Of a stretch of DNA of 64,000 bases, positions 6,914 through 40,100 are shown piece by piece. This DNA is from Cyanidioschyzon merolae (lineage: Eukaryota), in assembly GCA_000091205.1 (NCBI GenBank), contig AP006491.2. One strand, written 5' to 3'. The notes below the pieces were generated by a model, which did no database searches, was not told the DNA's origin, and saw nothing but the letters and a program-made list of their open reading frames with translations. The position numbers and the translations under genes are program-made. Position 1 is the first letter of the stretch, and the number at the start of each line of letters is the position of its first letter.

Positions 6914-9900
6914 ATGCCAAGAGCCAGTCGAGGTGCAAACGGCAAAGCAGCTGAAGCGCTGCGGAGGCTTGCTGAAGCTCGTGAAAGCGGTAGGCGACCA
7001 AGTGAGGACTATGAGCTCGAAGAACCTGAGCGGGTATACGAGGCGGTGGACGAGGACACGTATCGATCGCGTCGGGCGGAAGAACGCCACCAGGTACGAA
7101 GCTTCATTGTCAAGGACCGGGCAACGTTCTCGGGCAGCTCCGAGGACGAAGACTGCTTGACGTATTCAGAGGAGGAGAGTGAAGGGCGAACAAGCGCTCG
7201 ATCACGTGTGCGCGCGGGACGACAGCGAAGCAGGGAGCGAGGCTCGAGTGCTACAGTGGCGCGGAACCTGCTCAAACCGACTCAAACTCGTTTCCTGGGG
7301 CAGCCTACAGTACCGGGGACGCTCAAAATTGAGCAAGCCGCTCTGGCTACTTCCGTTGCGTCACATGGGCGTGTGCAGTCAGCCTCAAGCTCTGGTCGAC
7401 GCAAAAGCTTGGTTGACGAACTGCTCGCTGAGCAAGATGAATGGGCAGCGGGCGAGGAACGCACGTTTGTCGCCTCGAGAGCGCGCGGAAACGATAGTCG
7501 CCCGCTAGATGCACAGCCAAATCAGCATCCGACATCGGGTGTGATATCGGCACCACGACGGCGACGTGGCGCCCAAGATCTGCTCGTGGAGAGTGGCCCG
7601 CAGATCCCACTCGAAAGCCGTTCAGATACGGATCACGATCACGAGCATGATCCGAGAACACCCAGTACCCAAGAAAAATCTTGGACGACTCTCCAGGCTG
7701 CAAATGCGAGCGATTCTGAAAATGACATGGAGGTGAACGACGTCGACGCCGACCTCCTCCTGGATCGCGTACTTGAACTCGAGGCCGAATACGCCCACGA
7801 GGCAACTGAAAACGGAGTAACTGCCGTAGAAGGCGATCTTCCTGGTGATCGCGTTCCCGCGCTAACCTTTTTCGCGCTCGACATGCAGGAAATTTTGGAC
7901 AAAGTCTTCGTGTTCGGTCGAGCTCTGTTGCCGGAAACAAGCTCTTCAACTGCGGTTTGTGTTCAAGTTTGCGGCATTGAAAGGGAAATCTTCTTCTTGC
8001 CTCGAATGTACGTAGACTGCCCCGACGACGAGCAGGCAACACCACGTCCCTACCCGATCCTTGCGTCCGAGCAGGAGCCAAGATTGGCCCCCATCTCAGA
8101 AGGCATTGCTTTCTCCTGTGTCTACGAGGAAGTCAAGTCAGTTTTGCTGGCTCGCGGCATCACCGAATTCACCGCCCGTCGCGAGGAACGTTGTTTCCTT
8201 ACGAACCAGATCGATCGTCGCCGGGCGGAAGTAACATCGTGTTTGCGTGTGCGATACCCGGCAAAGTATCGAGCTTTGGAAACTGCTCTCGAGGGCCAGA
8301 CTTTCTCCCAAATCGTTGGTTCAAGAAATTCACCGCTAGAGAATTTCATACTTGAGCGATGCGTGCCAGGTCCGTGTTGGGTACAAGTCTCGAACGCAAG
8401 CCGCGTCACTGGGATATCATCATGTCGTTGGAGCCTTAACGTGGACTCGCCAGCTCAGTTCAGAGTGCTCGCGGCGGAGGAGATTCCAGCGTCGCAACCG
8501 CCAGGGCTGCGCGTACTGACGTTTTCCTTGCGCACGATCGCTGAGGCATCTCCTACATCGTTCGAAATAGCGATAATCTGCGCGACTGTATTCGATAATG
8601 TGCCCACGAACCGGAACTTGGGCGAAACGCCGCACCCTTCCATGCAGTTTGGCATCGTTCGGCCGCCAGCGCATGAGGCATTCCCTTTCGGTTTCGAGCG
8701 AATGATTTCGGGAAGAAGAATTCTTCGCGAGCGGAACGAGCTCGCCATGATCGAGCGCTTTCTCCGCGAAATCAATCAGCTAGATCCAGATGTCATCATT
8801 TGCCACCAGCTCCTCACGAGCCAATTCGATGTGTTCTTGAAAAGAATGCGTGAGCTGCGTCTCCGTGACTGGTGGCAGCTCGGCCGGCTTGTTCAGCGAC
8901 GTCCTTTGCAAGATTTTCGAAGTCATATGCAAGCATCTGGTCGCGGTTTGAATCCTGCACTGGCTCGGCAAATTTTCGCCGGGCGGCTCTTATGCGACAC
9001 AGAGGAGGCGGCTCGAGAGTACTTGCACAAGGAGAAGGACTATGGGCTCCGTGTCCTCTGCCGGGCGCTCCTCGGCTCCTACAAAAGCGCCGCGACGGGT
9101 AGCGATGGTGAATGGTCAGCCCAAGCCATGCGTTCAGTTTATCGCGAGGCGAAGCATCTCGTGGGGGCCATCGACTCATGTCTGGAAGACGCCAAGCTCA
9201 GCTTCCTCTTGGCAGACCGACTGGCGGTCATTCCGCTTACGAATGAGCTCGCCAGCATATGTGGATACCCTTGGGGTAAGACGATGCTTGGAAATCGAGC
9301 TGAGCGCATTGAGTATCTGCTGCTGCACGAGATCCACCGTTCTGGCAAGTACGTTGCGCCTGATCGGAGTTCGGGCCAAAGAGCCAGCATCCGACCGAAA
9401 CGCCCAAGCTTCGACCCGACAGCGCAGGCAAGCGCCGACAAAAGGCTGGACGCTGCGAGAACTCCCTCCAGTACACAGAGAGGTGCCTCAACACCGACCA
9501 CAACTGAGGGCAGCGCACTCGAGCTTGCGTCTTCAGCCAAACGGCGCAAACCTGCCTACCAAGGGGGATATGTGCTCGAGCCAAAGCGCGGTCTTTACGG
9601 GACTTGCGTTCTGCAACTCGACTTTAGCTCCCTCTACCCGTCCATCATTCAGGAATACAACATAGACTTTACCACCGTCACATTGGACTCTGAGGGAAAC
9701 GCCCTCTTGCCCAAACATAGCAACGAGCTGGGCATTCTTCCAACCGTGCTTCGGAGGCTCGTTCAGCGACGAAGACAGGTTCGAGAAGCGGCTCGCAACG
9801 AGTCGAGCCCTGTCCGCCAGCAACAGCTGCACACCAGGCAGCTAGCGCTCAAACTGACAGCGAACGCCCTGTATGGTTGTTTGGGATACGTCCACTCGCG

Positions 9901-11644: not shown

Positions 11645-12817
11645 CTACCTCGAGAAGCTGATTCCCTCGCTCTCGAGGAACCGCATTAACAGCTGGGTCG
11701 ATACGCTGACGTGCTTTGCTGCCAGCGTTTCCATAATTGCTCGTAACGGCACGCAGTCAAGTAAAAGAATACGCTCGTAGAGTGCAGAATCGGCTTTGAT
11801 TGCATCGCGAATGCTTCGGAAGCGGATGCTGTCTCGGTCGAGAGAAGCAGGCACTGCAGCATCTGGGGCAGTCGATGGCGCCTCGGTCGCACTGCAGTCC
11901 GATATCGGGTTCTCGGTGTGCTCCAGCGAACTTGAATGGAGTGCCGCCTCAGTGCTCGCCTCGTGCCCAGAAAGGTCACTGGCGTCGTCGCAGAGGTCGA
12001 CAACCTCGACGGCGTCTTCAGGGCGTGTCGGGATCGTCTCCGTTGGAGCGGGTAGCGTGGCGCCTCCGGTACCAGTGCGGAGCATGTCCCGCCCGATTTG
12101 AAGCGCACCCGCCAGTTGTGTATAGCCATTTCGATACAGTTCTATATCCTCGCATGAATCACTGGCGCAAACAGTCTCACGCTCACATGACTCCTGTGCA
12201 CTGCATCCGTCGTGGTCGCTCGAGTAACGTGGCATCCGCCGCTTCTTCACGCACGCGAGCCGATCCAGTGCAGGTTCCTCGACAAAGCAAAGCGTTTGCT
12301 TTCGCCGCTTCTCGTTCTGTTTCCCCAGGTTTGCAAGGGAAATACGGTATGCAGGTGTACGTAGTGCTTCCCAGAGCCGTTCGGCGCTTGATCGCGGAAT
12401 CTTCAGAAGCTCCAGGTCCGGCTGTTTGAGCAGGAAGAGCCGCTCGAGCGTCAGCTTCTCGCTGACAAGCAGTTCTGCGTAGCGTGCGACACCGTGTGCA
12501 GCCAGAAAGCGTCTCAGTGGTCCAAAAAGTCGCTCTTTTTGAATGCGTCTTTTCAAAAGCTTTTTCTCTTCCAGGGCACGTAGACGTTCGAGATCTGCGC
12601 GAAAACTGCAGCGATCGACGTGACGCCAGCGCCAGTCGAGCGCCCACGAACCAATCTCACGTCCACAGAACGGACACTTGACCTCCTCGTTACCAGAAAC
12701 TTCCTCGGTTTCGGAAACTGATGCAGGTGCTGTAGTAGGACAACAGGTTTCCAAGTGGTGCAGCTGCTCGTAGAGGCACAGAGAATCCAGCGGTGTCTGG
12801 CACTTGCTACAGTGCAT
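11645..12817 (-). CDS. SLX4-like structure-specific endonuclease scaffold candidate, with N-terminal UBZ-type C2HC zinc fingers and a C-terminal SLX1-binding-like helix-turn-helix
   Basis: Two UBZ4-like fingers (CSKCQTPL..H..C and CPFCGREI...HVDRC), a SAP/SAM-like helical segment, and a C-terminus (LYERILLLDCVPLRAIMETLAAKHVSVSTQLLMRFLESEGISF) that resembles the conserved C-terminal domain of Slx4. An ATG sits at 12815-12817 on the minus strand. The assignment is by motif resemblance only. Confidence 0.45.
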   Translation of the reverse strand: MHCSKCQTPLDSLCLYEQLHHLETCCPTTAPASVSETEEVSGNEEVKCPFCGREIGSWALDWRWRHVDRCSFRADLERLRALEEKKLLKRRIQKERLFGPLRRFLAAHGVARYAELLVSEKLTLERLFLLKQPDLELLKIPRSSAERLWEALRTPAYRISLANLGKQNEKRRKQTLCFVEEPALDRLACVKKRRMPRYSSDHDGCSAQESCERETVCASDSCEDIELYRNGYTQLAGALQIGRDMLRTGTGGATLPAPTETIPTRPEDAVEVVDLCDDASDLSGHEASTEAALHSSSLEHTENPISDCSATEAPSTAPDAAVPASLDRDSIRFRSIRDAIKADSALYERILLLDCVPLRAIMETLAAKHVSVSTQLLMRFLESEGISFSR

Positions 12818-13170
12818 ACATGAAAGGAAACCACACTCGCGCTGGGACGAACACCGGACTTGAATTTTTTTGAACGGCAGCGATTGGCAGCGACTCGGCA
12901 GGCGCCGAACTCGTAGTCGTTGCGGTATCTCCGAAAAGGAAGCAGACAGCGCCCAGATTCTGAACGGAAAACGAGTGACGCCGCTTAGTTTTTCCAGAGC
13001 TCATAATTCACGGGAGTCAGGTTCCATGGACAAGAGGAGTCATCCCCACAAATTGAATGACGGCATCAGGACCCGTTTTTGCGTGCCGAGCACCGTGCCG
13101 TGCAGAGGCGAATGCTCCGCACGCGGTTTTCAGAGCGTCCATGTGCGTGCGGACGACACTCAGCAAGCGA

Positions 13171-13450
13171 GCATGAGCATAATCATAAATATAAATAAGC
13201 TTGAGCACGAGCACGAGCACGAGCATAATTCTAAATATAGACATAAGCACGAGCATGAGCATGAGCATAATCATAAATATAAATAGAAACATAAGCACGA
13301 GCACGAGCATAATTCTAAATATAGACATAAGCATGAGCGTGAGCATGAGCATAATCATAAATATAAATAGAAACATAAGCACGAGCACGAGCACGAGCAA
13401 AAGCATGAGCATAATCATAAATATAAATAAGCTTGAGCACGAGCTTGAGC
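13171..13450. repeat. AT-rich minisatellite of about 3.3 units with an ~84-bp period, built from (AGCAYG)n runs alternating with AATCATAAATATAAATA or AATTCTAAATATAGACATA modules
   Basis: Read directly: the period between 13246, 13330 and 13414 is 84 bp. The block is bounded by AATAAGCTTGAGCACGAGC at both ends. Confidence 0.8.
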
Positions 13451-18687: not shown

Positions 18688-18723
18688 GCGGCTGCGGCTG
18701 CGGCTGCGGCTGCGGCTGCGGCG
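18688..18723. repeat. (GCGGCT)5-6 hexanucleotide microsatellite
   Basis: Read directly. It lies in a GC-rich gene-free interval that also contains a G10 run at 18345-18354. Confidence 0.9.
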
Positions 18724-18898: not shown

Positions 18899-20509
18899 AT
18901 GCGTGAGCGCCTCCCCAGTCCAGGCCGTTCGGGAACGCCTGCGCTGCAGTCTACGCGTGGGCACGATTCGCTGCAGCGGCTGCGCGTTCGGCCGGCGAGT
19001 TTTTCACAAACTAGCAGTGCAGCCGACGTACCAACTAGTCCTTTAGTGCTACCACCACTCGTTGGTGGCATGCAGCAAGGTGTTTCGGATTTTGGAAGAG
19101 CCTCAACTGGTCGGGGCCCTCTGTCTAGTGACGCGCCGCCTCCAAGCAATCGAACCGTCGGAATAGGCGGATCCGAAGGGGTACAGAAAGGCGATGACGA
19201 GGGCCAGGACGGCTTTTTCATAGGTAACAACCTGTTTCTCGCAAAAGGCCTCACAACAGCCGCCGCTTTGGCGGACGAACAACTGACGGGCGCGGCGCCT
19301 AGCCGGCTGGGCCCCAGCGGAAACGGCGAAAATAACCCACTGACGCTGAGACGAACGCTTTCCTGTATAGAGATAGACCCGTTTGGAAAAGCACAAGTAC
19401 GCGTTTACACTCGAGAGGAACTCATTCGAGAGCTGCGTTCAGAGTCCGTTACCGGGAACACTGCGGTCGACGTGGTCGAGCTTGCCTTCATCCGAGGCGA
19501 TGCCCGCGAAGAGTCGCAAATGTCTGGCGCGCTGGATCTGGCGCCGGTGACTGGTGGAAATCGACGCACCAAGTCATCAAAATCGAAGAAGAGGACCAAG
19601 TACGGCCCGATCCAGTCTCGCGATCTACGGTTGTTGGACCCGGCGTTCAGTGTGGAGCCGGCCTTGCATGTACGCGATCACGTCATTCTCGCGGTTTTCG
19701 ATAATCATATCCGAGCTGCAATCCAGTCGCATCGCCTGTTTATTTTTGATCACGAGTCCAAAAGAGCGCGACGGGCTACTGAGTTCGTTGTGCAACGACT
19801 CTCCCGAGTGTCAGCCGAGGAGGCGGTGCCCTTTGAGTTCGTTGCGCTGGAGGCGCTTCTCATGGCCACTTGTGCGGACATAGAATGGATGATGAGAAAC
19901 GTGGAGCCATTAATTGAGCGTGAACTAGGAGTTCTTTCAAGAGATCTGCGACGGAGTAATATCGAACGGCTCCGGGTCGATGAGCGCAGGCTCTCTCTTC
20001 TGCTTTCCCGAGCGCGGAATTTCGAGCACCTGCTCGAGGACATCCTCGACGAGGACGAGGACATGAGCCACATGTACTTGACCGAAATGCGTTACCATCC
20101 GGAAAAGTATCGTCTTCCTACCGATCACGAAGATGTGGAGCTGTTGCTCGAGAACGCGCTGCAGACGGTGCAGAGTCAGGTTCGTCGATTGGAGCTGCTC
20201 GATGCCGGCATCAATAACCTTGAGGAGATTCTGGAAATCAAACTGGATATATCTCAGAATCGCATCTGGTCGTTTAATATTTTCGTGCACCTTTGCGTGG
20301 CGACATTCTTCTTAGCTGCAATACCTGCTGATTTTTTCGGAATGAACTTGCAAATACCGCCTGACAAGGATCCGAATGTATTCTGGCCGTGGTTGCTGGT
20401 TTTTGGATTGAATATGGGCTTGGCGGTGGCCTTCTTTTCGCTTGCCATGCTGTTTCTTAAGCGACGACGATTGCTCTTTGGTCTCTTTAAGCGCCATCCG
20501 AGTGACTAG
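18899..20509 (+). CDS. Mrs2/CorA-family Mg2+ transporter (GMN motif)
   Basis: A C-terminal two-TM region with FFGMNLQIP (the canonical GMN), preceded by DEDMSHMYLTEMR and coiled-coil segments. An ATG at 18899. A low-complexity N-terminus could act as a presequence. Confidence 0.8.
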   Translation: MRERLPSPGRSGTPALQSTRGHDSLQRLRVRPASFSQTSSAADVPTSPLVLPPLVGGMQQGVSDFGRASTGRGPLSSDAPPPSNRTVGIGGSEGVQKGDDEGQDGFFIGNNLFLAKGLTTAAALADEQLTGAAPSRLGPSGNGENNPLTLRRTLSCIEIDPFGKAQVRVYTREELIRELRSESVTGNTAVDVVELAFIRGDAREESQMSGALDLAPVTGGNRRTKSSKSKKRTKYGPIQSRDLRLLDPAFSVEPALHVRDHVILAVFDNHIRAAIQSHRLFIFDHESKRARRATEFVVQRLSRVSAEEAVPFEFVALEALLMATCADIEWMMRNVEPLIERELGVLSRDLRRSNIERLRVDERRLSLLLSRARNFEHLLEDILDEDEDMSHMYLTEMRYHPEKYRLPTDHEDVELLLENALQTVQSQVRRLELLDAGINNLEEILEIKLDISQNRIWSFNIFVHLCVATFFLAAIPADFFGMNLQIPPDKDPNVFWPWLLVFGLNMGLAVAFFSLAMLFLKRRRLLFGLFKRHPSD

Positions 20510-20668
20510 GGTACTGGCACGAGACATGCGCCAGCACCAGACCTCTGCGGGACAACGCGTGGTACCGCAAGACGCGCGACCGTTGCCGTGCTCGGGCGCT
20601 CTCGTCGACGTTAATCGGCGGATTCGTGGTGATGCTTCCCGAAGGACGCAGTTGATCTCGCTGAAACT

Positions 20669-22783
20669 TCATACGGTAAGGATACCAACCCGCCGCGCCC
20701 ACCAAAACATACACAGAATCGTGAGCGGCACCGTGAATGCCGTGATTGCCACAAAGCCGATGAACCACGAAGCATTGGTGCCGTAGATCGGCAGTTGCAG
20801 ATTCATGCTAAAGAATCGATTCACAACACCAGCGCCAGCGAAGACACAGGTCAGGACGGTCATTAACACACTGATGCGCAAAAGGCGATTTCGCATCGAG
20901 TCCAGTTGCAGATCCACTAAACCCTCGGTATCATCGATGGTGGCACCGAGGAGCCGTGCTCGGCCCGCCAGATAGTCCAGCACCCGCAGGTACGACTCGA
21001 GCAGCTCCTCCACCTGTGTGTGGGCTTTTGTCGGGCGCTCAGTGTCGGGGTGCTTCCGCATTTCGGTTAAATACATTCGAGCCATATCTTCGTCCTCGCT
21101 GAGCAGGTCTTGGAGCGCGTCTCGCACTCCGTCTACTCGAGATGAAAAGTTGCTCAACATTTGCTTCAAATAGAGCATTTCTTCCAGCTTCCTGCCGCTG
21201 ATCTTGTGTGTCAACTCATTCAGGAGGCGCGTGAGACTCGGCTCGATACACGCGAGATCTCGTTCGAGTGCGACGCACACCTCGATCAAAACGGATTCCA
21301 GCGCGTGAAGTTCAAAGGGAATCTCCTGTTCCTCATCACTCTGGGCAGCGATGAGCCGCTCTTCGATGGATCGGGCACTCTGACGCACACTCTGATCATT
21401 GGGATTGAAGAGCAACATATGATCAGCGAAAATGACGGCGCGCAGATGCGCAAGACTCACAATGATCACATGTCGCCGTACGAGAATAACGGGCCGCGGT
21501 TTTGTGGTCGGATGGATTTGTCTCAGGTCGCGGCTTTGAAGGATACCACGCAGCTCAGCCTGGAGCTTTCTGCGTTCCTTCTTGCGCTGTCGCCATACCG
21601 CGTGATGAAGCGTCTCTTCGGACTGGGAGTCTGCTGGAATGCAGTTGGCGCTGCTCGGTGCACGGATCTGATCGTTCGCCCGCGCTGCCGCCAGAATCTC
21701 TGTTGTGGTGATTTTCTCAACCGTGGCATGTCCGTTAAACCCAAACCGGAAACAAAGCAATGTGTTCAGGGCGCGTTTTGGTTTCTTTTGCTCGGCAGGA
21801 GTGTGTTGTCCAAATCCGGCGTATGGTGTTGTCGCGATGGGTTCCGGCGCCTGGCCCCGAGCACGCCCGCTAGGGCGCAACGTCGGTGGCTGCGGAAACT
21901 CCTCATCGTGGCTGTCGCGGTGCTCAGGAGACACGTTTTCCGCACTCGAGGGCAGCGCGCCTTGTCTACGCTCACTTACAGGCGAATCCTCCGCACGGCC
22001 AGAATCTCTGTACAAGTCCCGCTCGTTCGTTGTAAGCGCTCCGTGCAGGTTCGTCTCGTGTTCGGGTCCGGAACTACTGCTAGGTTCAGCGTTGTCTGGG
22101 CGTTCGCGTGTGTGCAAGCTATCCGGGGTCGCGCGTTGCGTCGCACGCTGCAACAAAAGTTGGTTGCGAATCGACTGCTGAAAGAGTTCCAGAGTCTGGT
22201 TTCGAGATCGGAGGCCCTCGAGCGCACCGCTCGAAAGAGAACGTCGGAAATTCGTTTCCTTCGACGAGTACAGTCCCGACTCTGGAGCAGGCTCGAAAGG
22301 TTCCGCGGCAACTGGTGGCGGGCCAGTCTCGAGCAGGGGCGAAGAACCCGCCACCGCCACCGTCACCGCGGACTCCCGAGCGTTCGCCTCGCTCTCGGAG
22401 CAAGGTGGCGCCGGGTGCAAAATCGTCTCATCGTCCAGGCCTTCAGAAGCGTTTAGCGGTAGAATGGGAACTCCACCGTCGCTTTCAGAGTCTGACGCTT
22501 CCATGTTGCCGAGGCGCGAGCAGCGTGTGCCCGAATGCCAACCTCGATGCGCCAGCAGCCTTGCATAGCCGCATTTGGAGCAGGGGCAATGGAGCGGGCG
22601 CGAGGGCCGGGCATGTAGACGAAGCTGCATATTTTGGGACTCTGTGGACAGGGTAGCATACAGCTGATCGTTCTGCTGCGGCACGACAGCGTTGCTGGAC
22701 TTGTGAGCACTGGGCCTTAGGCAAACAGCGCTATGCGCATGCACGTGGGTGCACAGCACCGCAAACCCATGAAAAGACTCCAT
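20669..22783 (-). CDS. Mrs2/CorA-family Mg2+ transporter paralog with a variant SMN motif
   Basis: Shares DEDMARMYLTEMR and a C-terminal two-TM architecture with the upstream paralog, but the signature reads FFSMNLQLP instead of GMN. It has a long low-complexity N-terminal region. It is convergent with 18899..20509, with the stops 160 bp apart. Confidence 0.65.
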   Translation of the reverse strand: MESFHGFAVLCTHVHAHSAVCLRPSAHKSSNAVVPQQNDQLYATLSTESQNMQLRLHARPSRPLHCPCSKCGYARLLAHRGWHSGTRCSRLGNMEASDSESDGGVPILPLNASEGLDDETILHPAPPCSESEANARESAVTVAVAGSSPLLETGPPPVAAEPFEPAPESGLYSSKETNFRRSLSSGALEGLRSRNQTLELFQQSIRNQLLLQRATQRATPDSLHTRERPDNAEPSSSSGPEHETNLHGALTTNERDLYRDSGRAEDSPVSERRQGALPSSAENVSPEHRDSHDEEFPQPPTLRPSGRARGQAPEPIATTPYAGFGQHTPAEQKKPKRALNTLLCFRFGFNGHATVEKITTTEILAAARANDQIRAPSSANCIPADSQSEETLHHAVWRQRKKERRKLQAELRGILQSRDLRQIHPTTKPRPVILVRRHVIIVSLAHLRAVIFADHMLLFNPNDQSVRQSARSIEERLIAAQSDEEQEIPFELHALESVLIEVCVALERDLACIEPSLTRLLNELTHKISGRKLEEMLYLKQMLSNFSSRVDGVRDALQDLLSEDEDMARMYLTEMRKHPDTERPTKAHTQVEELLESYLRVLDYLAGRARLLGATIDDTEGLVDLQLDSMRNRLLRISVLMTVLTCVFAGAGVVNRFFSMNLQLPIYGTNASWFIGFVAITAFTVPLTILCMFWWARRVGILTV

Positions 22784-30639: not shown

Positions 30640-33225
30640 ACGCTGTTCGAAAGTCGCACGTCGCCGACCGTGCACGGTAGTAGCGGGAAACGCGCGTTCG
30701 ACATAGCGTTTCCAGCTGACGTGTAGACGCCTCCCCGTCTTTCTCGACCGGCCACCGACTACTGGTTTCAACTTTTTCTCATATAGTTCCACTTTGAGAG
30801 GTTGCCCCACAAGTCCGCTCTTGTCGTCTCTGGAGGTCTTCTCTCCAGCACCGCACATCTCCTTACATTGATAGCGGCATTAAAGTCAAGATTCACGAAC
30901 TCCATACGTTTCTTGCCATCGTTCGTTGTACTTACTAGTGCAAGTAGCCCTCGCACTTTCGCCCTCCTTTCCATTTGCTCTTCGGTCAGCGGTCCGTACT
31001 TTTTTATATCCTCAGGGCTCCGCTGACACTTTTCCATCTCGACCCTTTGAAGTGTACATCCCAGTTCATGGTGTGTATAGGATGTTCGGAACTCATCTAC
31101 AGTTACTGTGACGAAACGCCATGCACACTCTTTGTACGTTCTTGTCGTTGGAGCTGGTGTAGTTCCTTTTTGGGTCATCAAGCGCCCTGCTCCGTACGCT
31201 ATTACAAGCCTCTGACTTTAATCCTCCTTCAAGGCGCTCAACTCATTGAAACAATTCACGAATGAACGCTGCTTCTGACAATACAAGTTCATACGCAGAC
31301 GAGCCCACCGGGGCTTTGTATACTCTTTCCACAGGGCATCCCAATGCGCCATGCGAACTTCCATGAATTTCCAAAAAGCATCAAGGTCCGCTCCTCGGCT
31401 CGTCACCTCGCTCAAAGCTTCCAGGTGCTCCTTCATTCCTGCATTCCATGTCTCAGTTTTTTTCCTTGCATTCATGATTTCCGATTCTCGATCGTATCTC
31501 GCTCTCGAGAAGCTCAAAATTCGCATGTCTTTCTGACGTAAGTTACCATCAGTATCATCTTCCACACGCCTGGGCAAAGCGATGGTTATGATATTTGTGT
31601 TTCCAGGGTCCGCGTCAACGACAAGGTCGTTATGCTCCACCTCCTGCGTCGCAAGTTCCGCTTCCTTCTTATCTTCATGCTTCGCCGCGGCAGCCATACA
31701 GTCGTTATCCTCCACTTTCTGTGTGGCAGGATCCGCCGTCTTCATATCTTCATGGTTCGCCGAGGACGGAACTGGACGATCTCTCTTCAACCGCCGATAG
31801 TGTATACACAAGGCTACTCCATCGGTTTCGATCAACCCAGTAAGTACCTTTTGTTTGCTGGCTTTGAGACGTTTGAAATCGAAGAGACTCTTCCAGTACG
31901 TCTCCCGGTTTTCACCGGAGAATTCCTCCCTGCTAACACTGAACTCCGGACTGATCCCCTTCATGATGCCGTAAAGGATTCTGGAGTCGACAGTCACAAA
32001 ATGTGACTTGATGTTGCACATTGGAACCAGGTTGAAGCGCTTCCCCATTAGGACAGCCTTCCGTCTCTCCCACTCTTCATTGTTTTCCCCACTCAGCTTC
32101 ATCTCCGCTTTGCGTTCGAGTTCACGGTCCAAAAACACGAAGTACCTCAAGATGAGGAGGCAGTATCTTTCCTTATCTTTTTTCAACTCTGATACCTTTT
32201 CTGATGGATTCACCAGCCCCAAGACTGCACGGTGCTCTTGTATAACCGCACGGATCACAGAAGCTTCATTCGTGCTCTCGTTTGACGCCTTCTTCTCGAC
32301 AAATTCGACCTCATCTTCACGCTTGCGATCTTTCATGATGCCATTGATAATCGCCCATTTTCCATTGCGGGATAGGCCCGGGTAGAGTGCAACCACGGCG
32401 CGTATTAAGAAACGTTCGAGGTTCGTTGTCAAATGGTTCTTCAGGTTCGTGATGCACTTCATCGCCCCATAGTCGTAAATATCGCGGTCACCCCTGCATC
32501 GAGTACCGTTGAAGCTGTAGAAGGGATGTTTTTCGTGGAGGGCACGCACCAGCTAATGTTCCGTCCGCGCTCTCTCTGTGCCAAGCATCAGGTGACGAAT
32601 AAACGTCTTGTCGAGAAACTCGTCCGCAACCTCGACTATTTCCATGTGCGTCACGTCTTCGTACATCTCCCTCGCGCAATGCATCAGTTCTGACGACGCC
32701 TTGACAATACTCTTGGAGTACGAATCGAGACGTTTTTTGATAGCGTCTCGCAACTCTTCCCTGTAGGGATCCTTGATATGTCCAAGAAGGAAGGATTTCA
32801 CCGCCTTCTCGTTGTACAGCCGTCTTTCTTGCCGCCTTCGACGTAGGGCCTCCCCCCTTCGGTTCCTCTTCTCTTTCTTTTCTTCTGGACTCGGCACTGT
32901 TTTTTGTTTTTTTTCTGGCAGCCGGCGACCTTGGGCCCCCAGGATCGTGCACTTTCTTTTCCATAACTTTCCTTTTTAGTATTTTTGAGAAAGAACGCTC
33001 TTTGAACCCTTCTGTTATATGCTGCGAAAAAACACTTGACTAGACTTGTTTGAGAGCTGACACAAAAATGAACTGAAAACTATACGTTGCCAAGATCTCA
33101 ACGGGAATCCGACTTTTACAGCTGAACAACACGCTACTGATCTCAATCGAGTTTCCCTTCAACGGCGACATACGCGTCGTGTCTCATGCCTGCCAGATCC
33201 CCCAGGTGCACTCACCGGGCGCGAC
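30640..33225 (-). mobile_element. TnpB/Fanzor-like element, copy A (decayed), forming the left arm of a large inverted repeat
   Basis: This is the reverse complement of 37493-40100, with about 95% identity across the ORF and about 80% in the 3' flank. The inner boundary at about 33222-33225 matches B's inner boundary at about 37493-37495, and the outer homology fades at about 30640. Confidence 0.7.
30768..32964 (-). pseudogene. TnpB/Fanzor-like RuvC nuclease gene, copy A, disrupted by a frameshift, TAA and TAG stops and a 6-nt deletion
   Basis: Compared with copy B it has an extra A in an A7/A8 run near 32905 (an N-terminal frameshift), the shared in-frame TAG at 32550-32552, GGG to TAA at about 31215 (the ALKED* site), and an in-frame 6-nt deletion (RWASKKGT to RLMTQKGT). 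The RuvC-like motifs are retained: [16 protein letters not shown] and LDFNAAINV. Confidence 0.7.
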
Positions 33226-33227
33226 TC

Positions 33228-36200
33228 TTTTTTTCATAGACAAGACGTTTACTTGTGCCCGCATTCTCCGATTGTGCGCTTTTTCTTTTCTTACTTTTTT
33301 TTTCAGTGTGCGGTGACGTATCCATCAACCCCCTACCTCCATGTTACATTACTTGTACTTCGTTTTGGATATTCTGGTCGTTTCATACGTCCTATCGTGT
33401 GCCGAGCCTGCCGAAAGCGACAGCAACGGCGCCTAAAGCGCCGGTGCGGTCGCTGCACGGAGACAGAACGGCTTTTCCATACCACAGAGGGCGTCGGCTC
33501 GAGGCATGGTTCACCCGACGTAGAATCGGGTCTCGTCGTCAGTTTGAGCTCGGATAGTCTGCGGATGCAAGCTTGTCTTCGCTGCACGATACGCTGGAGA
33601 AACTTGGCTGTTAGGATACATCCTAGGAGCCGCCTCTCTCCTTCCTGGTCATGCATGGAATGCGTTGTTGTCGGTTGGCAATGCGAGTTTGTGCTTGACA
33701 CCCACCACTGTGGGTAGGCGCAGAAAGCGCACTGGGCCCGTGTGCGCATCCGATACGCTGGACCTCATGCCTAGAACGTAGCATGTGAGTTTGTTCGCCA
33801 CTAATGAGCGCTGAGGCTCGGTTAGCGGACCATCAGTTACCAGTGCTACACTCCGAGTGAGTGTCCGGCCTTCGACAATCACGGTGATGTCCAGCTGCTG
33901 CTGTCCCCCAAGGAGCTCGCTGCGCTCCTGCTTCCAGCGCGGGCAATGTAGGCCTAAATGTGTCAGCGTCTCGGGTATCTCGTCTCGACAGCAGGGACAG
34001 TGTGATTCCCAGTGCGATTCCAGTGTTCCTATACGGCTTAGAGCCGGTGCTGCCAGCCGGAAGCCACCAACGCGGATTTTGGCGAGCCACTGGGTACCTC
34101 GAGCAAGTCCCGGGAATTCCAGCCTCCTACCAGTACTTGCATGTGTATGCTAGGTTGTAGTTCCGGTATAGAGTCAAGCCGGCGTTACTGGCGCGACTGG
34201 TTCCGTGTATACGTTCCCATATGGTTGTTTGGACCGTTCGCTTGAGGCGGCGGGAGCCTTGTGCATTTCTGGGGAACGATTCGAGCGCATTTTCGCCTAA
34301 GAGGCGCTTCAGCCAAATATGCGTTGATTTCATCCAAGTGTTCTTGCGGTGCGTTGGGGTTTGCATGAAACTCCGACTGAACCAGGTGCGCATGGTGGGC
34401 CCTTTGGCCCATATGCGTGCCCGGCAGCCTGCTGCTATCGCTTCTGTCGAGGGTATTTGGAGTTCAAGTCCGAGTGCCAGCGCGGTGGTTGCTCTGCTCT
34501 GCACTGAGCATCAAACAACGACAACGAGTCGCATTGCCCTGTTGGCGGCTGTCTGCGGACGCGAGGCATTTGTGTGCTTCATGCCGCACCACCCAGCACC
34601 CCAGGTCGCAGGCTGGATGATACACATCCTTCGTGCGCTGGTACGAATTGCTATGCAGATAGAGGGGTCGGATGGGACTGGGCGTGCGATCGCTGTACGT
34701 CTATGCATCTTGGCGATCATCTCGTCAACGTGTGCGTTTTCGTCGAGCGTCGGCGTTAGACAGACCCCCAGGTAGCGATAGTTTTCCCCGATCGGAATTT
34801 CCTGATTCTGCAACCGCCACGAGCGATTGCGAATGCGCTGCGAGTCTCCATGGATGGCCATGACGCCGCACTTCGATGCTCCTACGTTCATCTCCCAGCG
34901 ATCGGCCCAGGCGCTGGCTTGTTGCATGCTACCCGCAAGCGTTTCCGGGGCGGGTGCCAACAGCACTATATCGTCCGCAACTAGACGGCCTGCGAGGCGG
35001 TTCCTATGTGAGGGCTCCTCATCGGGCATCTCCCCAGTCTATCCACGGCACCTCAAGCCCGTATTGTCTGCAGTTTTTCAGCGGATCGTTGATGAAGATG
35101 TTGAAAAGGAGCGGGGATGCGCGCTCGCCCTTTTGTAGTCCACGGCGTATTCTTATACAAGGGGTTCTTGAGCCGTCGCCCAGTCGGATGCGCATCCACG
35201 AGTCTGCATAGAGCGCACGGAAGAACGCTAAGCACTTTCCGGAGACTCCGGCTCGTTCCATCTTCAAAAATAGAGCCTCGTGCGGGACCGTGTCAAAGGC
35301 CTCTTGGAAGTCGATGAAGCATACGTAAGTTGGTTGTTGGCCGCTAATGGAGCGACGTTGCGCCACTTCAATGAGGGTCAGGGCATGGTTCATGCACTCA
35401 TCGCGGCTCCGGAATCCAGCCTGTTCTGGGGCGAAGAACTTGCGTTCCTCGAGGCCTCTCTGGATCCGGTTCGTGAGGTTGGCGCAAAAGTAGCTTCATG
35501 ATTGACGGGATGAGGCCGATAGGCCGGTAGATGTTCATGTCTTTGTGTGTAAGAGTCCTTTTTGAGGATCGGTACGACCTCGGCAGTCCTCCGTACATCT
35601 GGGATGCACGCTTCTTCAAACATGCGTTGAATGAGCTCCAGAAGGCGTTTGCATAAGATTGTGTCAGGTTCATCTGGTATCGATGGTGTCCCTGTTGTCT
35701 CGTATTTTGGGGTCACCAGTTTCATCCACTCCGCAGGGATACCGTCGATGCCAGGTGTTTTGCGGTTGCTTGAGCATAGTAGGGCCCGAACAGATTCAGG
35801 CCAGAAGATTGGCTCGTTCCATTCCGGTACCGGGTCGAGGCGCGGTAGTTCTGCAGCATATTGGTGCCAATAGATTCGGTCTTGGCAGTTCCCAGTTGCG
35901 TCTTCATGCAGCTCTATCCCGTGGTCCGTCCAGGCCTCATTCACTGAGGCACGCTCCGTCCTCAGCGCTTCCTTATAAACGATTGATGTGAGCCGCAAGC
36001 ACTTTTTTGGTGGGTCCAGTCTCGATCGAATGTAGCGCTAGGTCTCATCTTCGTTGGTGCCCTCGAGCATAAATTCCGTCAGGGAGTCGATTTTGCGGTT
36101 TCGATCCTCTCGTTTGTCTTCTCTGGAACGTTTCTTCTTTCTTTTGATAGCGTCCTCATGTTGCGCCTGTAGCGCCGGTAGCGCTGCCTTCGCTTCCTTG

Positions 36201-37470
36201 TCTCCGGCGTTGGCGCGTATGGCGGTGCGGTTGACGATCTTATAGAGTCGGTGGCATTCATCATTCCGAGTTTTGGTACGTCATTCCAGGTACCGCGGTT
36301 TGCAACTGTTGTGTTCTGGTGCAAGCAGTCCCAGTTCTCTGGCAATCTTCTGATTCCCATCTACATACTCGCGTGCCAATTGGTCAAAAGATTTGTATGC
36401 ACGGCTTTTCGGATCTTCAGCGCTGTGAGCAGGTGCCTGGGTTTGGCGACGTTTTTCTTGGGTTCCCGCTGGGGTGCCCTTTCGGGGGATCACTTGCGAT
36501 GGGCTCGTTTGGGGGGGTCTTCTTTCTATTCTTCTGTTTTTTCTTGTCGGTCTTCCTCGTCTTCTTCGGGCTCTTTCCTGAGCTGCTTTCTCTGGATATT
36601 TTGCATCTAAGTGGATCATGAGGTTTCTGTGCCTCCTTCTCCGTATCTGGTTGGGTCTCTTTACCTAATGCAGAGTCCTCCACTTGTATCAGTTCTTCGT
36701 TACAGTACTGGTAATTCGAAATCTCGTCGTCTAGTATCGAGGCCGTCCCACAAATATTCCATGATACGAAACCTATCGAGTCATAGCGCATACGGGAATA
36801 GGAATAGCGCTACGGTACTCCAGAGATACGTTGTCGATTTAGATACACGCTTCACGAGGTGTGTGAACGTACATGCCACCATTGCCCTCTGCATTCCAGT
36901 CGTTCATTGAGTGTCTGCCGCAGCGCTAGCGCGGAATCAGAAGTACATTAGTAAAGGTCGATTCGAATGCGACCTTTATCTTGCCGGACGCGTGTACCTC
37001 TCCTCAACCACAGGGGATACTCTACGAACCAACCTTTCAGCGGCTTCGTATCCGCTCCCCAAATACATAGGCGGGCAAGTCGCTTACTCCACCTTCGACA
37101 GTGAACATACTGGCAGCCGTCTTCAAAAGTATCCGCCGAGATTGTTTCCAAAGTTGAGGTAGGTACGCAAGGTAGGAGGTACAACTGAGCCCGAGTTCGA
37201 GGATAGATCCAGTATTTGCGCCGAAACCTGCAGCGTTGATTCGGGAGGGGCGAATGACTGCTCAGAACTCTCGTCAATATTTTCTGGTGCTACTGCCTCC
37301 GCCCCTCCGTTCGTTGCGGTCAAGGTCCCTGGCGTGGGCTTCCTTCCCCGTCGCTTAAACACCCCGCGTTAACCCATTTTCAGAGCTTCTCTGGAAAATC
37401 TAGACCTCTTAGGCGAGGGTGGTGTGTGGGGCTTTTAAGATAGTGGTTCTTTGATAAATAGTTTGCGACT
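33228..37470 (-). mobile_element. Non-LTR retrotransposon (LINE) of about 4.2 kb with a decayed single APE+RT ORF and poly(A)
   Basis: Read on the minus strand from 5' to 3'. It begins with an APE-like N-terminus (FVSWNICG at about 36760). RT motif 0 follows (KTPGIDGIPAEWMK), then motif 1 (VVPILKK) and motif 2 (YRPIGLIPSIMKLL). Next come motif A (FIDFQEAFDTVPH), motif B (RGLQKGERASPLLFNIF) and motif C (FADDIVLLA). These lie in at least three different frames, so the ORF is frameshifted. A C-terminal CCHC (HCPCCRDEIPETLTHLGLHCPRWKQER at about 33900) and a ~420-bp 3' UTR end in A7 at 33228-33234. The flanking hexamers GCGACT(C/A) at 33221-33227 and 37464-37470 are a possible short TSD. Confidence 0.7.
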
Positions 37471-37492
37471 AGTTTGCATCACGCTCGGTGAG

Positions 37493-40100
37493 TGCACCTG
37501 GGGGATCTGGCAGACATGAGACACGACGCGTATGTCGCCGTTGAAGGGAAACTCGATTGGGATCAGTAGCGTGTTGTTCAGCTGTAAAAGTCGGATTCCC
37601 GTTGAGATCTTGGCAACGTATAGTTTTCAGTTCATTTTTGTGTCAGCTCTCAAACAAGTCTAGTCAAGTGTTTTTTCGCAGCATATAACAGAAGGGTTCA
37701 AAGAGCGTTCTTTCTCAAAAATACTAAAAAGGAAAGTTATGGAAAAGAAAGTGCACGATCCCGGAGGCCCAGTGTCGCCGGCTGCCAGAAAAAAACAAAA
37801 AACAGTGCCGAGTCCAGAAGAAAAGGAAGAGAAGAGGAACCGAAGGGGGGAGGTCCTACGTCGAAGGCGGCAAGAAAGACGGCTGTACAACGAGAAGGCG
37901 GTGAAATCCTTCCTTCTTGGACATATCAAGGATCCCTACAGGGAAGAGTTGCGAGACGCTATCAAAAAACGTCTCGATTCGTACTCCAAGAGTATTGTCA
38001 AGGCGTCGTCAGAACTGATGCATTGCGTGAGGGAGATGTACGAAGACGTGACGCACATGGAAATAGTCGAGGTTGCGGACGAGGTTTTCGACAAGACGTT
38101 TATTCGTCACCTGATGCTTGGCACAGAGAGAGCGCGGACGGAACATTAGCTGGTGCGTGCCCTCCACGAAAAACATCCCTTCTACAGCTTCAACGGTACT
38201 CGATGCAGGGGTGACCGCGATATTTACGACTATGGGGCGATGAAGTGCATCACGAACCTGAAGAACCATTTGACAACGAACCTCGAACGTTTCTTAATAC
38301 GCGCCGTGGTTGCACTCTACCCGGGCCTATCCCGCAATGGAAAATGGGCGATTATCAATGGCATCATGAAAGATCGCAAGCGTGAAGATGAGGTCGAATT
38401 TGTCGAGAAGAAGGCGTCAAACGAGAGCACGAATGAAGCTTCTGTGATCCGTGCGGTTATACAAGAGCACCGTGCAGTCTTGGGGCTGGTGAATCCAGCA
38501 GAAAAGGTATCAGAGTTGAAGAAAGATAAGGAAAGATACTGCCTCCTCATCTTGAGGTACTTCGTGTTTTTGGACCGTGAACTCGAACGCAAAGCGGAGA
38601 TGAAGCTGAGTGAAGAAAACAATGAAGAGTGGGAGAGACGGAAGGCTTTCCTAATGGGGAGGCGCTTCAACCTGGTTCCAATGTGCAACATCAAGTCACA
38701 TTTTGTGACTGTCGACTCCAGAATCCTTTACGGCATCATGAAGGGGATCAGTCCGGAGTTCAATGTTAGCAGGGAGGAATTCTCCGGTGAAAACCGGGAG
38801 ACGTCTTGGAAGAGTCTCTTCGATTTCAAACGTCTCAAAGCCAGCAAACAAAAGGTACTTACTGGGTTGATCGAAACCGATGGAGTAGCCTTGTGTATAC
38901 ACTATCGGCGGTTGAAGAGAGATCGTCCAGTCCTGCCCTCGGCTGCGCCCGCGACGAAGGATGAAGATAAGAAGGAAGCGGCTCCTGTAACGCAGGAGGT
39001 GGAGGATAGTGACTTTCTCGTTGACGCGGCGAAGGATGAAGATAAGAAGGAAGCGGCTCCTGCGACGCAGGAGGTGGAGCATAACGACCTTGTCGTTGAC
39101 GCGGACCCTGGAAACACAAATATCATAACCATCGCTTTGCCCAGGCGTGTGGAAGATGATACTGATGGTAACTTACGTCAGAAAGACATGCGAATTTTGA
39201 GCTTCTCGAGAGCGAGATACGATCGAGAATCGGAAATCATGAATGCAAGGAAGAAAACTGAGACATGGAATGCAGGAATGAAGGAGCACCTGGAAGCTTT
39301 GAGCGAGGTGACGAGCCGAGGAGCGGACTTTGAAGCTTTTTGGAAATTCATGGAAGTTCGCATGGCGCATTGGGATGCCCTGTGGAAAGAGTATACAAAG
39401 CCCCGGTGGGCTCGTCTGCGTATGAACTTGTATTGTGGGAAGCAGCGGGCGTTCGCGAATTTGTTCAATGAGTTGAGCGCCTTGAAGGAGGATGGGAGTC
39501 AGAGGCTGGTAGTGGCTTATGGAGCAGGGCGCTGGGCGTCGAAGAAAGGCACTACGCCAGCTCCAACTACGAGGGTGCACAAGGAGTGCGCAAGGCGTTT
39601 TGTTACAATACCTGTAGATGAGTTCCGAACATCGAATACAAACCACGAGCTGGGATGCACACCCCAGAGAGTGGAGATGGAAAAGTGCCAGAGGAGCCCT
39701 GAGGAATTTGCAAATTACGGACCGCTGACGGAGGAGCAAATGGAAAGGAGAGCGAAAGTGCGAGGGCTACTTGCACTATTAAGTACAACGAACGATGGCA
39801 AGAAACGTATGGAGTTCGTGAATCTTGACTTTAATGCCGCTATCAATGTAAGGAGATGTGCGGTGCTGGAAAGTAGACCTCCAGAGTGGACACGAGAGAA
39901 CTTTTTTGGATAACCTCCCAAAGTCGAACTATATGAGAAAAAGTTGGAAGCAGAAGTAGGTGGCCGGTCGAAAAAGGCGCGGAGGCGCCTGCGCGTCGAC
40001 TGGAAACGTTTCGTGTAAGGCGCGGTTTTCCCGCCACTACTGTAAACTGCCGACGTCGTTCGACTTAGAGCGGCGTTGGCGGCTGTCCGTTCAGGGTGGC
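37493..40100 (+). mobile_element. TnpB/Fanzor-like element, copy B (the more intact one), forming the right arm of the inverted repeat
   Basis: A 246-bp 5' region, an ORF at 37739-39913, and about 190 bp of 3' flank that is still homologous to copy A. Homology ends about 35 bp upstream of the SMC1 ATG at 40135. Confidence 0.7.
37739..39913 (+). CDS. TnpB/Fanzor-like (IS605 OrfB-like) RuvC-fold nuclease candidate, 725 codons, interrupted by one in-frame TAG at 38147-38149
   Basis: A RuvC-I-like motif ([17 protein letters not shown]....DG), a segment resembling the TnpB strand that precedes the zinc ribbon ([20 protein letters not shown]), a degenerate zinc-ribbon region (H..GC...C), and a RuvC-III-like DxNAAxNI motif ([12 protein letters not shown]). 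A basic NLS-like N-terminus ([31 protein letters not shown]). An internal 75-bp tandem duplication ([15 protein letters not shown]...) sits just before RuvC-I. The ATG is at 37739. The assignment is by motif pattern only. Confidence 0.5.

Follow-up and report, generated by a model that had tools for sequence, protein, structure and literature searches.

Within a 64,000-nucleotide stretch of the Cyanidioschyzon merolae genome (contig AP006491.2 of assembly GCA_000091205.1; hereafter the window), two genes for MRS2-like channel subunits lie tail to tail. The first, which we call GMN1, occupies 18899-20509 on the plus strand and encodes 536 amino acids (aa). The second, SMN, occupies 20669-22504 on the minus strand and encodes 611 aa, comprising a Mrs2-fold domain and two transmembrane (TM) helices. 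The stop codons are separated by a 159-bp spacer (20510-20668). Both products matched the Pfam MRS2-like family (PF22099; gathering cut-off, 27 bits), GMN1 with 120.7 bits (E = 7.7e-35) and SMN with 159 bits. At the end of TM1, GMN1 carries the canonical filter D478-F-F-G481-M-N483 (20330-20347, plus strand; G481-M-N at 20339-20347), whereas SMN carries the altered filter R563-F-F-S566-M-N568 (20801-20818, minus strand; S566-M-N at 20801-20809, with Ser encoded by AGC). The tail-to-tail Mrs2/CorA pair with one GMN and one SMN tripeptide, as described in the initial annotation of the window, was thus confirmed.

The GMN1 open reading frame (ORF) includes ADFFGMNLQIPP / PADFFGMNLQIPP, and the long ORF of SMN (20669-22783, minus strand; 704 aa) includes NRFFSMNLQLPI / VNRFFSMNLQLPI; FFSMNLQLPIYGTNASW is a protein stretch from the predicted products of the pair. 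The GMN1 protein is identical to BAM80057.1 of C. merolae 10D (536 aa; cluster P0225) and the SMN protein to BAM80058.1 of the same strain (611 aa). Both are encoded on the 810,151-bp chromosome under the database name 'similar to mitochondrial magnesium transporter Mrs2p'. On one side of the pair lie the genes for DNA polymerase alpha, Slx4 and NFACT, and on the other those for an M17 peptidase and CcmE; Cyanidiococcus yangmingshanensis and a related assembly show a matching gene order at their orthologues. The 159-bp spacing was repeated in 10 environmental contigs. Judging from this layout, transcription of the two convergent genes would have to end within the spacer, or their 3' ends would overlap there.

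The start codon of SMN was assigned to M94 of the 704-aa ORF (window position 22504), according to the orthologues and the deposited 611-aa protein. Ten environmental contigs encode precisely this 611-aa protein. Five of them have an in-frame stop inside the 93-codon extension (22505-22783, minus strand), and the contigs differ there from the window by 3-8 per 279 nt, mostly by 'non-synonymous' changes. The first 93 codons are non-coding and the start lies at M94; therefore the gene spans 20669-22504 on the minus strand and encodes 611 aa. The extension is probably a 5' leader or promoter. Accordingly, of the long, low-complexity N-terminus that the initial annotation had attributed to the second gene, 93 codons were an artefact of the ORF, and an acidic, poorly conserved region of approximately 240 residues is what stands. 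The upstream extension was the only part of the environmental contigs in which a comparison was informative. We rejected polymorphism among these contigs as a test of selection, because they had been retrieved by exact protein identity and differences confined to synonymous sites of the coding sequence are true by construction.

The remainder of SMN is predicted to have the fold expected of the family. When the protein was compared with solved structures using phmmer, the best match was CtMrs2 (8q8p; E = 3e-37), in which the Gly of GMN pairs with the Ser of SMN. The substitution of Ser for Gly in the filter of the second copy, as proposed initially, therefore stands. An AlphaFold2 (AF2) model of residues 237-611 (pLDDT 84, pTM 0.71) shows strands followed by helices; a helix at 260-332 (model numbering) ends at the SMN motif, and TM2 corresponds to the helix at 342-369. 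The model has the elements of the Mrs2/CorA fold, namely an N-terminal alpha/beta domain, a stalk that continues as one long helix into TM1 and, after a short loop, the C-terminal TM2, and the SMN tripeptide caps the long stalk/TM1 helix at the position of GMN. A Foldseek search with this model again returned 8q8p_A (CtMrs2, a cryo-EM structure of the Chaetomium protein) as the best match (E = 4.5e-18, TMt 0.86); yeast and human MRS2 came next (human TMt 0.82), and CorA after them (E ~1e-5).

The altered tripeptide is conserved. Both Cyanidiococcus and a related Logan assembly retain NRFFSMNLQLPIYG, and Cyanidium has NRWFSMNL(Q/K)LPVY; the GMN1 orthologues of Cyanidiococcus and Cyanidium retain GMN. 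Three lineages encode the Ser by AGC, and a fourth by the synonymous AGT. At least 14 independent contigs from metagenomes or SRA data encode the exact C. merolae SMN protein, in every case beside GMN1, and the environmental copies all keep SMN, TMN and HMN (the latter two belong to paralogs described below). In a comparison of two Cyanidiococcus-like genomes, in which dS is approximately 1.6 and saturated, the ratio of nonsynonymous to synonymous substitution rates (dN/dS) was 0.06 for the conserved domain of SMN, 0.33 for its N-terminal region and 0.07 for GMN1. The change from Gly to Ser is thus real, heritable and conserved, and SMN is kept by purifying selection with an intact predicted Mrs2 fold and an altered pore-mouth sequence. 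In the course of these comparisons we noted that the deposited SMN model of Cyanidiococcus (VWRR01000011.1; L001:8001-9816) comprises 1816 nt for 591 aa with a non-colinear translation, and that the continuous ORF and the deposited protein agree for only the final 564 residues. Such a mismatch suggests an artificial 40-nt 'intron' or a frameshift near the 5' end of the gene model in this assembly.

SMN is one of five MRS2-like genes of C. merolae, of which two (GMN1 and GMN2) encode GMN and three (SMN, TMN and HMN) encode Ser, Thr or His followed by MN. GMN2 encodes 574 aa, contains ADIFGMNLNCPW and lies head to head with the TMN gene. The TMN protein is BAM81115.1 (434 aa; cluster P0014) and the HMN protein is BAM81010.1 (470 aa; P0216; L007:8001-9422); the genes of both are on the 866,983-bp chromosome. 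Hence three of the five members have lost the filter Gly, each to a different polar residue that is kept in the orthologues; we refer to these three as xMN.

GMN is regarded as the signature tripeptide and selectivity filter throughout the CorA/Mrs2/Alr1 superfamily, and its loss is rare: it is present in 138 of the 154 family representatives whose motif could be read. Thirteen of the others are cyanidiophyte xMN sequences (SMN in five, TMN in three, TVN in one and HMN in four), and the rest are two Aphanomyces proteins (TMN and AMN) and one protein with GMV. The 2-TM-GxN definition attributed to Knoop in 2005 is said to be Gly-x-Asn, with Gly retained even where the middle residue varies. By this measure, GMN1 and GMN2 keep the GxN signature, and SMN, TMN, HMN and the TVN protein of Cyanidium lack it. 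The two Aphanomyces proteins, from A. stellatus and A. astaci (P0077 and P0095; SFTMNL and AMAMNV), fall outside the cyanidiophyte clade in the neighbour-joining (NJ) tree, and their loss of the filter Gly is apparently independent.

The residues around the filter of SMN also differ from those of its relatives. All five SMN-clade sequences share the filter Ser and have Arg at position -3, whereas all seven cyanidiophyte GMN1 and GMN2 sequences have Asp there; TMN and HMN keep Gly at this position, and outside the cyanidiophytes it is occupied by small residues in most sequences (G69/A33/S24/N4/C2/D1/T1). The TM1-TM2 loop of C. merolae SMN (LQLPIYGTNAS) contains no acidic residue, compared with a family mean of 1.6. 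At the same time, SMN keeps the Met and Asn of the motif, the aromatic pair that precedes them and the RNR in TM1. As for HMN, it combines His in place of the filter Gly with an Asp seven residues upstream (WADVVIGLFHMN), a position that we take to be equivalent to the pore-lining T305 of CorA; the combination of His and Asp would suit the binding of a transition metal.

We then consider how the two neighbours are related. The initial annotation had proposed an inverted local duplication, in part because both proteins share the DEDMxxMYLTEMR block. The block, EDEDMxxMYLTEMR in its fuller form, is indeed present in both, as EDEDMSHMYLTEMR in the stalk region of GMN1 (20051-20092, plus strand), where it is a family-wide motif, and as EDEDMARMYLTEMR in SMN (21056-21097, minus strand). 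However, EDEDM...YLTE is near-invariant in an alignment of 31 MRS2-like family members, and therefore it is not an indicator of local duplication. GMN1 and SMN are 28% identical over approximately 405 residues, and each has its own orthologues in other genera at 44-60% identity. When the two genes were searched with blastn at word size 7 for a trace of an inverted duplication, nothing was found beyond a single 60-nt stretch of 75% identity at the EDEDM block.

To rank the relatives of SMN, its conserved domain was searched exhaustively with phmmer against 1.84 billion cluster representatives. After the SMN orthologue, the top matches were P0012 (SMN), P0014 (TMN) and P0015 (HMN). Approximately 50 GMN proteins of other organisms came next, ahead of the family of GMN1, which appeared at rank ~55-67 (E = 1e-43 to 2e-36). 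One of the better matches was the Mrs2p (P0048; E = 4.6e-50) from the nucleomorph of the cryptophyte Guillardia theta, a compartment of red-algal origin; this protein keeps GMN. A scan of metagenomes with an xMN profile returned only SMN, TMN and HMN of the C. merolae type together with distant GMN proteins.

NJ trees were calculated from 327 columns of 154 sequences, 20 of which are from cyanidiophytes. The SMN, TMN, HMN and GMN1 groups were each recovered with 100% bootstrap support, as was the union of GMN1 and GMN2. The xMN clade (SMN, TMN and HMN) received 88-93% and SMN with TMN 74%. All 20 cyanidiophyte copies formed one group in 51% of the replicates. Recent local duplicates should be mutual closest relatives with retained nucleotide similarity, and GMN1 and SMN are neither each other's closest relatives nor, beyond the single 60-nt stretch, similar at the DNA level.

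The gene order in Cyanidium caldarium is consistent with this. At its SMN locus, SMC, Rpr2, CcmE, M17 and Gar1 are followed by SMN and then by NFACT and Slx4, so that synteny is conserved, but NFACT comes directly after SMN with no GMN1 between them. The GMN1 orthologue of Cyanidium is on a separate contig among unrelated neighbours; its convergent neighbour of 401 aa is unrelated, and tblastn showed no hidden MRS2 at that locus. In Cyanidioschyzon and Cyanidiococcus, the GMN1-SMN pair is convergent. The adjacency of the two genes may be ancestral or may have arisen in the Cyanidioschyzon/Cyanidiococcus line. The phmmer ranking, the NJ tree and the synteny thus essentially describe ancient lineages rather than local paralogs, which the initial annotation had named as the outcome that would speak against its proposal, and an inverted local duplication in any recent sense was not supported.

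A second GMN-xMN neighbour pair, consisting of GMN2 and TMN or TVN, is conserved in the C. merolae-type, Cyanidiococcus and Cyanidium genomes, with Cullin, ThiF/Rhodanese and ketoacyl synthase genes as flanks common to the three genera. The two genes are head to head in Cyanidioschyzon (L006:3391-5115 (-) and 7216-8520 (+)) and Cyanidiococcus (L043:4289-6007 (-) and 7001-8305 (+)), and in tandem, with TVN before GMN2, in Cyanidium (L004:10001-11563 (+) and 11660-13300 (+)). The HMN gene has no partner gene alongside.

The N-terminal regions of the neighbours also differ. By charge count only, the first 40 aa of SMN contain no Arg or Lys and 10 Asp or Glu, unlike a presequence, whereas those of GMN1 contain seven Arg or Lys and two Asp or Glu and resemble a presequence. 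The N-termini of GMN1 and GMN2 are basic and rich in Ser and Thr. This weakly suggests that SMN is not imported into mitochondria or plastids by a presequence and that GMN1 and GMN2 may be imported. Within the fast-evolving, probably disordered N-terminal region of SMN, an RRxLS island (R87, R88 and S91) is invariant in all five SMN orthologues. It reads RRSLSS in C. merolae (22229-22246, minus strand) and may be a candidate site for a basophilic kinase or for 14-3-3-type binding.

Several other features of the window were noted. A perfect hexanucleotide repeat, (GCGGCT)x5.8, is located at 18688-18722, approximately 180 bp before the start of GMN1 in the 1.3-kb spacer that follows NFACT. The spacer between Slx4 and NFACT contains an AT-rich tandem array (13168-13393) with a 42/84-bp period, the 84-bp unit having 92% matches. 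Between 30000 and 38100, the GC content falls to 0.50-0.52 and the AT skew is strongly negative (-0.14 to -0.18), and no ORF of 250 aa or more lies within 32549-38153, which is unusual given the compact genome. A tRNA scan of the window found none.

Taken together, we consider it likely that GMN1 and SMN are old, distant members of a five-gene MRS2-like family and that SMN is a conserved subunit of the xMN clade with an altered pore mouth. GMN1 and GMN2 would form the canonical cyanidiophyte clade, and SMN, TMN and HMN the xMN clade, in which Ser, Thr or His replaced the filter Gly and would have been held by purifying selection since before the split of Cyanidioschyzon, Cyanidiococcus and Cyanidium. 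In the predicted SMN subunit, an N-terminal alpha/beta domain precedes a long stalk helix that passes into TM1, and a short loop joins TM1 to TM2; the protein would still assemble as a pentamer of the CorA/Mrs2 type. Its outer pore mouth appears to be remodelled in three ways, with Ser for Gly, Arg for a small residue at -3 and no acidic residue in the loop, and the protein probably serves as a channel subunit with this altered mouth. Since a ring of polar Ser, a nearby Arg and a loop without carboxylates make classical Mg2+ selectivity unlikely, SMN would differ from the classical Mg2+-selective channel, showing altered permeation or gating as a homomer or modulating a GMN subunit in a heteromer. 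The diverged function that had been suggested for SMN in the initial annotation is a reasonable and plausible reading, because the substitution is real, heritable and conserved (SMN is kept, with dN/dS of 0.06), and the broader xMN pattern strengthens it.

Some points weigh against this interpretation. The filter Gly acts through its backbone carbonyl, which Ser also has, and Mg2+ conduction by SMN might therefore survive. Maize ZmMGT6, which has AMN, complements partially (PMC9948656). The AF2 model is a prediction of a monomer and does not extend to how R563 and S566 would be oriented in a pentamer. The targeting argument uses N-terminal charge only. The tree was built by NJ only, from distances derived from p-distances, and the cyanidiophyte clades are drawn from Cyanidioschyzon, Cyanidiococcus and Cyanidium. 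Further, because all the cyanidiophyte copies grouped together in 51% of the replicates, the GMN and xMN lineages may have arisen in tandem very long ago.

The last point leads to the alternative that we take most seriously, although we hold it only tentatively, that a tandem of GMN and xMN in the cyanidiophyte ancestor was duplicated as a block to give GMN1-SMN and GMN2-TMN, and that adjacency was kept by cooperation, for example in heteropentamers as reported for Mrs2/Lpe10 of yeast. Such a block would account for the two GMN-xMN neighbour pairs in C. merolae and Cyanidiococcus, for the adjacency of GMN2 and T(M/V)N in Cyanidium within the same flanking genes, and for the shape of the tree, in which GMN1 and GMN2 are sisters (100) and SMN and TMN are sisters (74). 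The grouping of all cyanidiophyte copies agrees with it as well, but that support is weak and possibly reflects long-branch attraction. The opposite charges at -3, Asp in GMN1 and GMN2 and Arg in SMN, would fit mixed assemblies, as would the modulation of the Mrs2 channel by Lpe10 that is documented by Sponder (2010) in the account cited in PMC9276622; however, the charge pairing does not extend to TMN, whose residue at -3 is Gly, and the N-termini suggest separate compartments for GMN1 and SMN. Further, GMN1 does not adjoin SMN in Cyanidium, the orientations vary between pairs and genera (convergent, divergent and tandem), and HMN is without a partner gene. It is very improbable that the pair arose by a recent inverted local duplication and that one copy then neofunctionalised. 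The genes are adjacent, inverted and of one family, but they share only 28% protein identity and essentially no DNA similarity, closer paralogs of SMN are on another chromosome, other genera contain separate orthologues of the two genes (44-60% identity), and the Cyanidium locus is syntenic without GMN1.

The remaining alternatives concern the SMN tripeptide itself. SMN could be an ordinary Mg2+ channel in which Ser is tolerated as a near-neutral change, because only the backbone carbonyl contacts hydrated Mg2+. The pore entrance of CorA binds partly hydrated Mg2+ through a ring of Gly carbonyls and through Asn side chains (PMC3629940), the contribution of the Gly being its carbonyl; SMN retains the Met, the Asn, the aromatic pair and the RNR in TM1, and ZmMGT6 shows that an AMN protein can have some activity (PMC9948656). 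Against this, single substitutions in GMN abolish transport, including G to A in yeast Mrs2 (PMC4613352), and natural AMN proteins of rice fail to complement, the complementation by ZmMGT6 being weak or partial (PMC4613352, PMC9948656). Gly is kept in 138 of the 154 relatives, and Ser is accompanied by Arg at -3 and by the loss of loop carboxylates, changes that all or part of the SMN clade retains. The fixation of Ser, Thr and His in three sister paralogs, with no return to Gly in any of them, speaks for selection on the side chain. We therefore regard an ordinary Mg2+ channel as unlikely. That the SMN reading is a sequencing error or belongs to a pseudogene, the other outcome that the initial annotation had named as fatal to its proposal, can practically be dismissed. 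The motif is in the deposited 10D protein, on the independent metagenome and SRA contigs (at least 14) and in three other taxa, the ORFs are intact with an omega of 0.06, and we found no point in its favour.

Comparison with known systems places SMN among the Mrs2 channels (yeast Mrs2p, CtMrs2 8q8p/8q8q and human MRS2 8ip3), which it resembles in PF22099, in the predicted fold (TMt 0.82-0.86), in the order of stalk, TM1, loop and TM2, in the EDEDM...YLTE block, in the RNR of TM1 and in the Met and Asn of the filter. It differs from them in the Ser of the filter, the Arg at -3, the loop without acidic residues and the acidic, disordered N-terminal extension of approximately 240 aa where the others have a mitochondrial presequence. 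GMN1 keeps GMN but differs from them in the Asp at -3. Tripeptides other than GMN are known in plant MRS2/MGT proteins, such as OsMRS2-4 and -5 of rice (AMN), OsMRS2-8 (GIN), ZmMGT6 of maize (AMN) and TaMGT1 of wheat (AMN), and Mg2+ complementation by these variants is reduced or absent where tested (PMC4613352, PMC9948656). As in cyanidiophytes, the filter change in plants is lineage-specific and conserved within an expanded family, and the first Gly is lost in the AMN forms. However, the plant variants carry Ala, which is small and apolar, whereas the red-algal sister paralogs carry the polar Ser, Thr and His, with the additional Arg at -3 in SMN, and the clades are unrelated. In ZntB and other 2-TM-GxN members of the CorA superfamily (GVN/GIN), an altered tripeptide goes with Zn2+ as the substrate (PMC4613352, PMC9948656). 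ZntB changes the middle residue and keeps Gly, whereas the cyanidiophyte xMN proteins, which are Mrs2-type sequences, lose Gly and keep Met and Asn, with the exception of TVN in Cyanidium.

Pairs of divergent paralogs offer another comparison. In yeast, Lpe10 keeps GMN, and the Mrs2 and Lpe10 genes are not known to be neighbours. Mrs2p and Lpe10p (and also Alr1 and Alr2) are pairs of CorA-family paralogs in which one modulates the channel of the other, as PMC9276622 relates from Sponder (2010), and may be a model for GMN and xMN. MGT1 and MGT2 of Leishmania are a divergent CorA-like pair of a protist that is located in a non-mitochondrial membrane, the endoplasmic reticulum; in the account of Zhu (2009) that is cited in PMC12998195, Mg2+ transport was shown for one only and the other is essential. 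These proteins belong to an unrelated lineage.

Within the papers covered, a literature search found none on these C. merolae genes or on the SMN, TMN and HMN variants. The existence of the genes is not new, as they are annotated in a model genome, but the pattern of the xMN clade is apparently undescribed. Cyanidiophyte red algae inhabit metal-rich hot springs of pH 0.5-3. It is conceivable, although we think it rather doubtful, that the xMN subfamily provides a new permeation property, such as the transport of another metal or ion or a proton-excluding uptake of Mg2+ at an acid-facing membrane, and that the GMN-xMN pairs act as mixed pentamers. C. merolae is a tractable organism, in which homologous recombination works and which has a single mitochondrion and a single plastid. 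The present results correct the database label 'similar to mitochondrial Mrs2p', which is attached to all the copies, and show that the pair is not a recent duplication. Further, with three substituted filters beside GMN paralogs in one small genome, the xMN clade constitutes a natural experiment on the role of the filter Gly and on the re-tuning of selectivity in this family.

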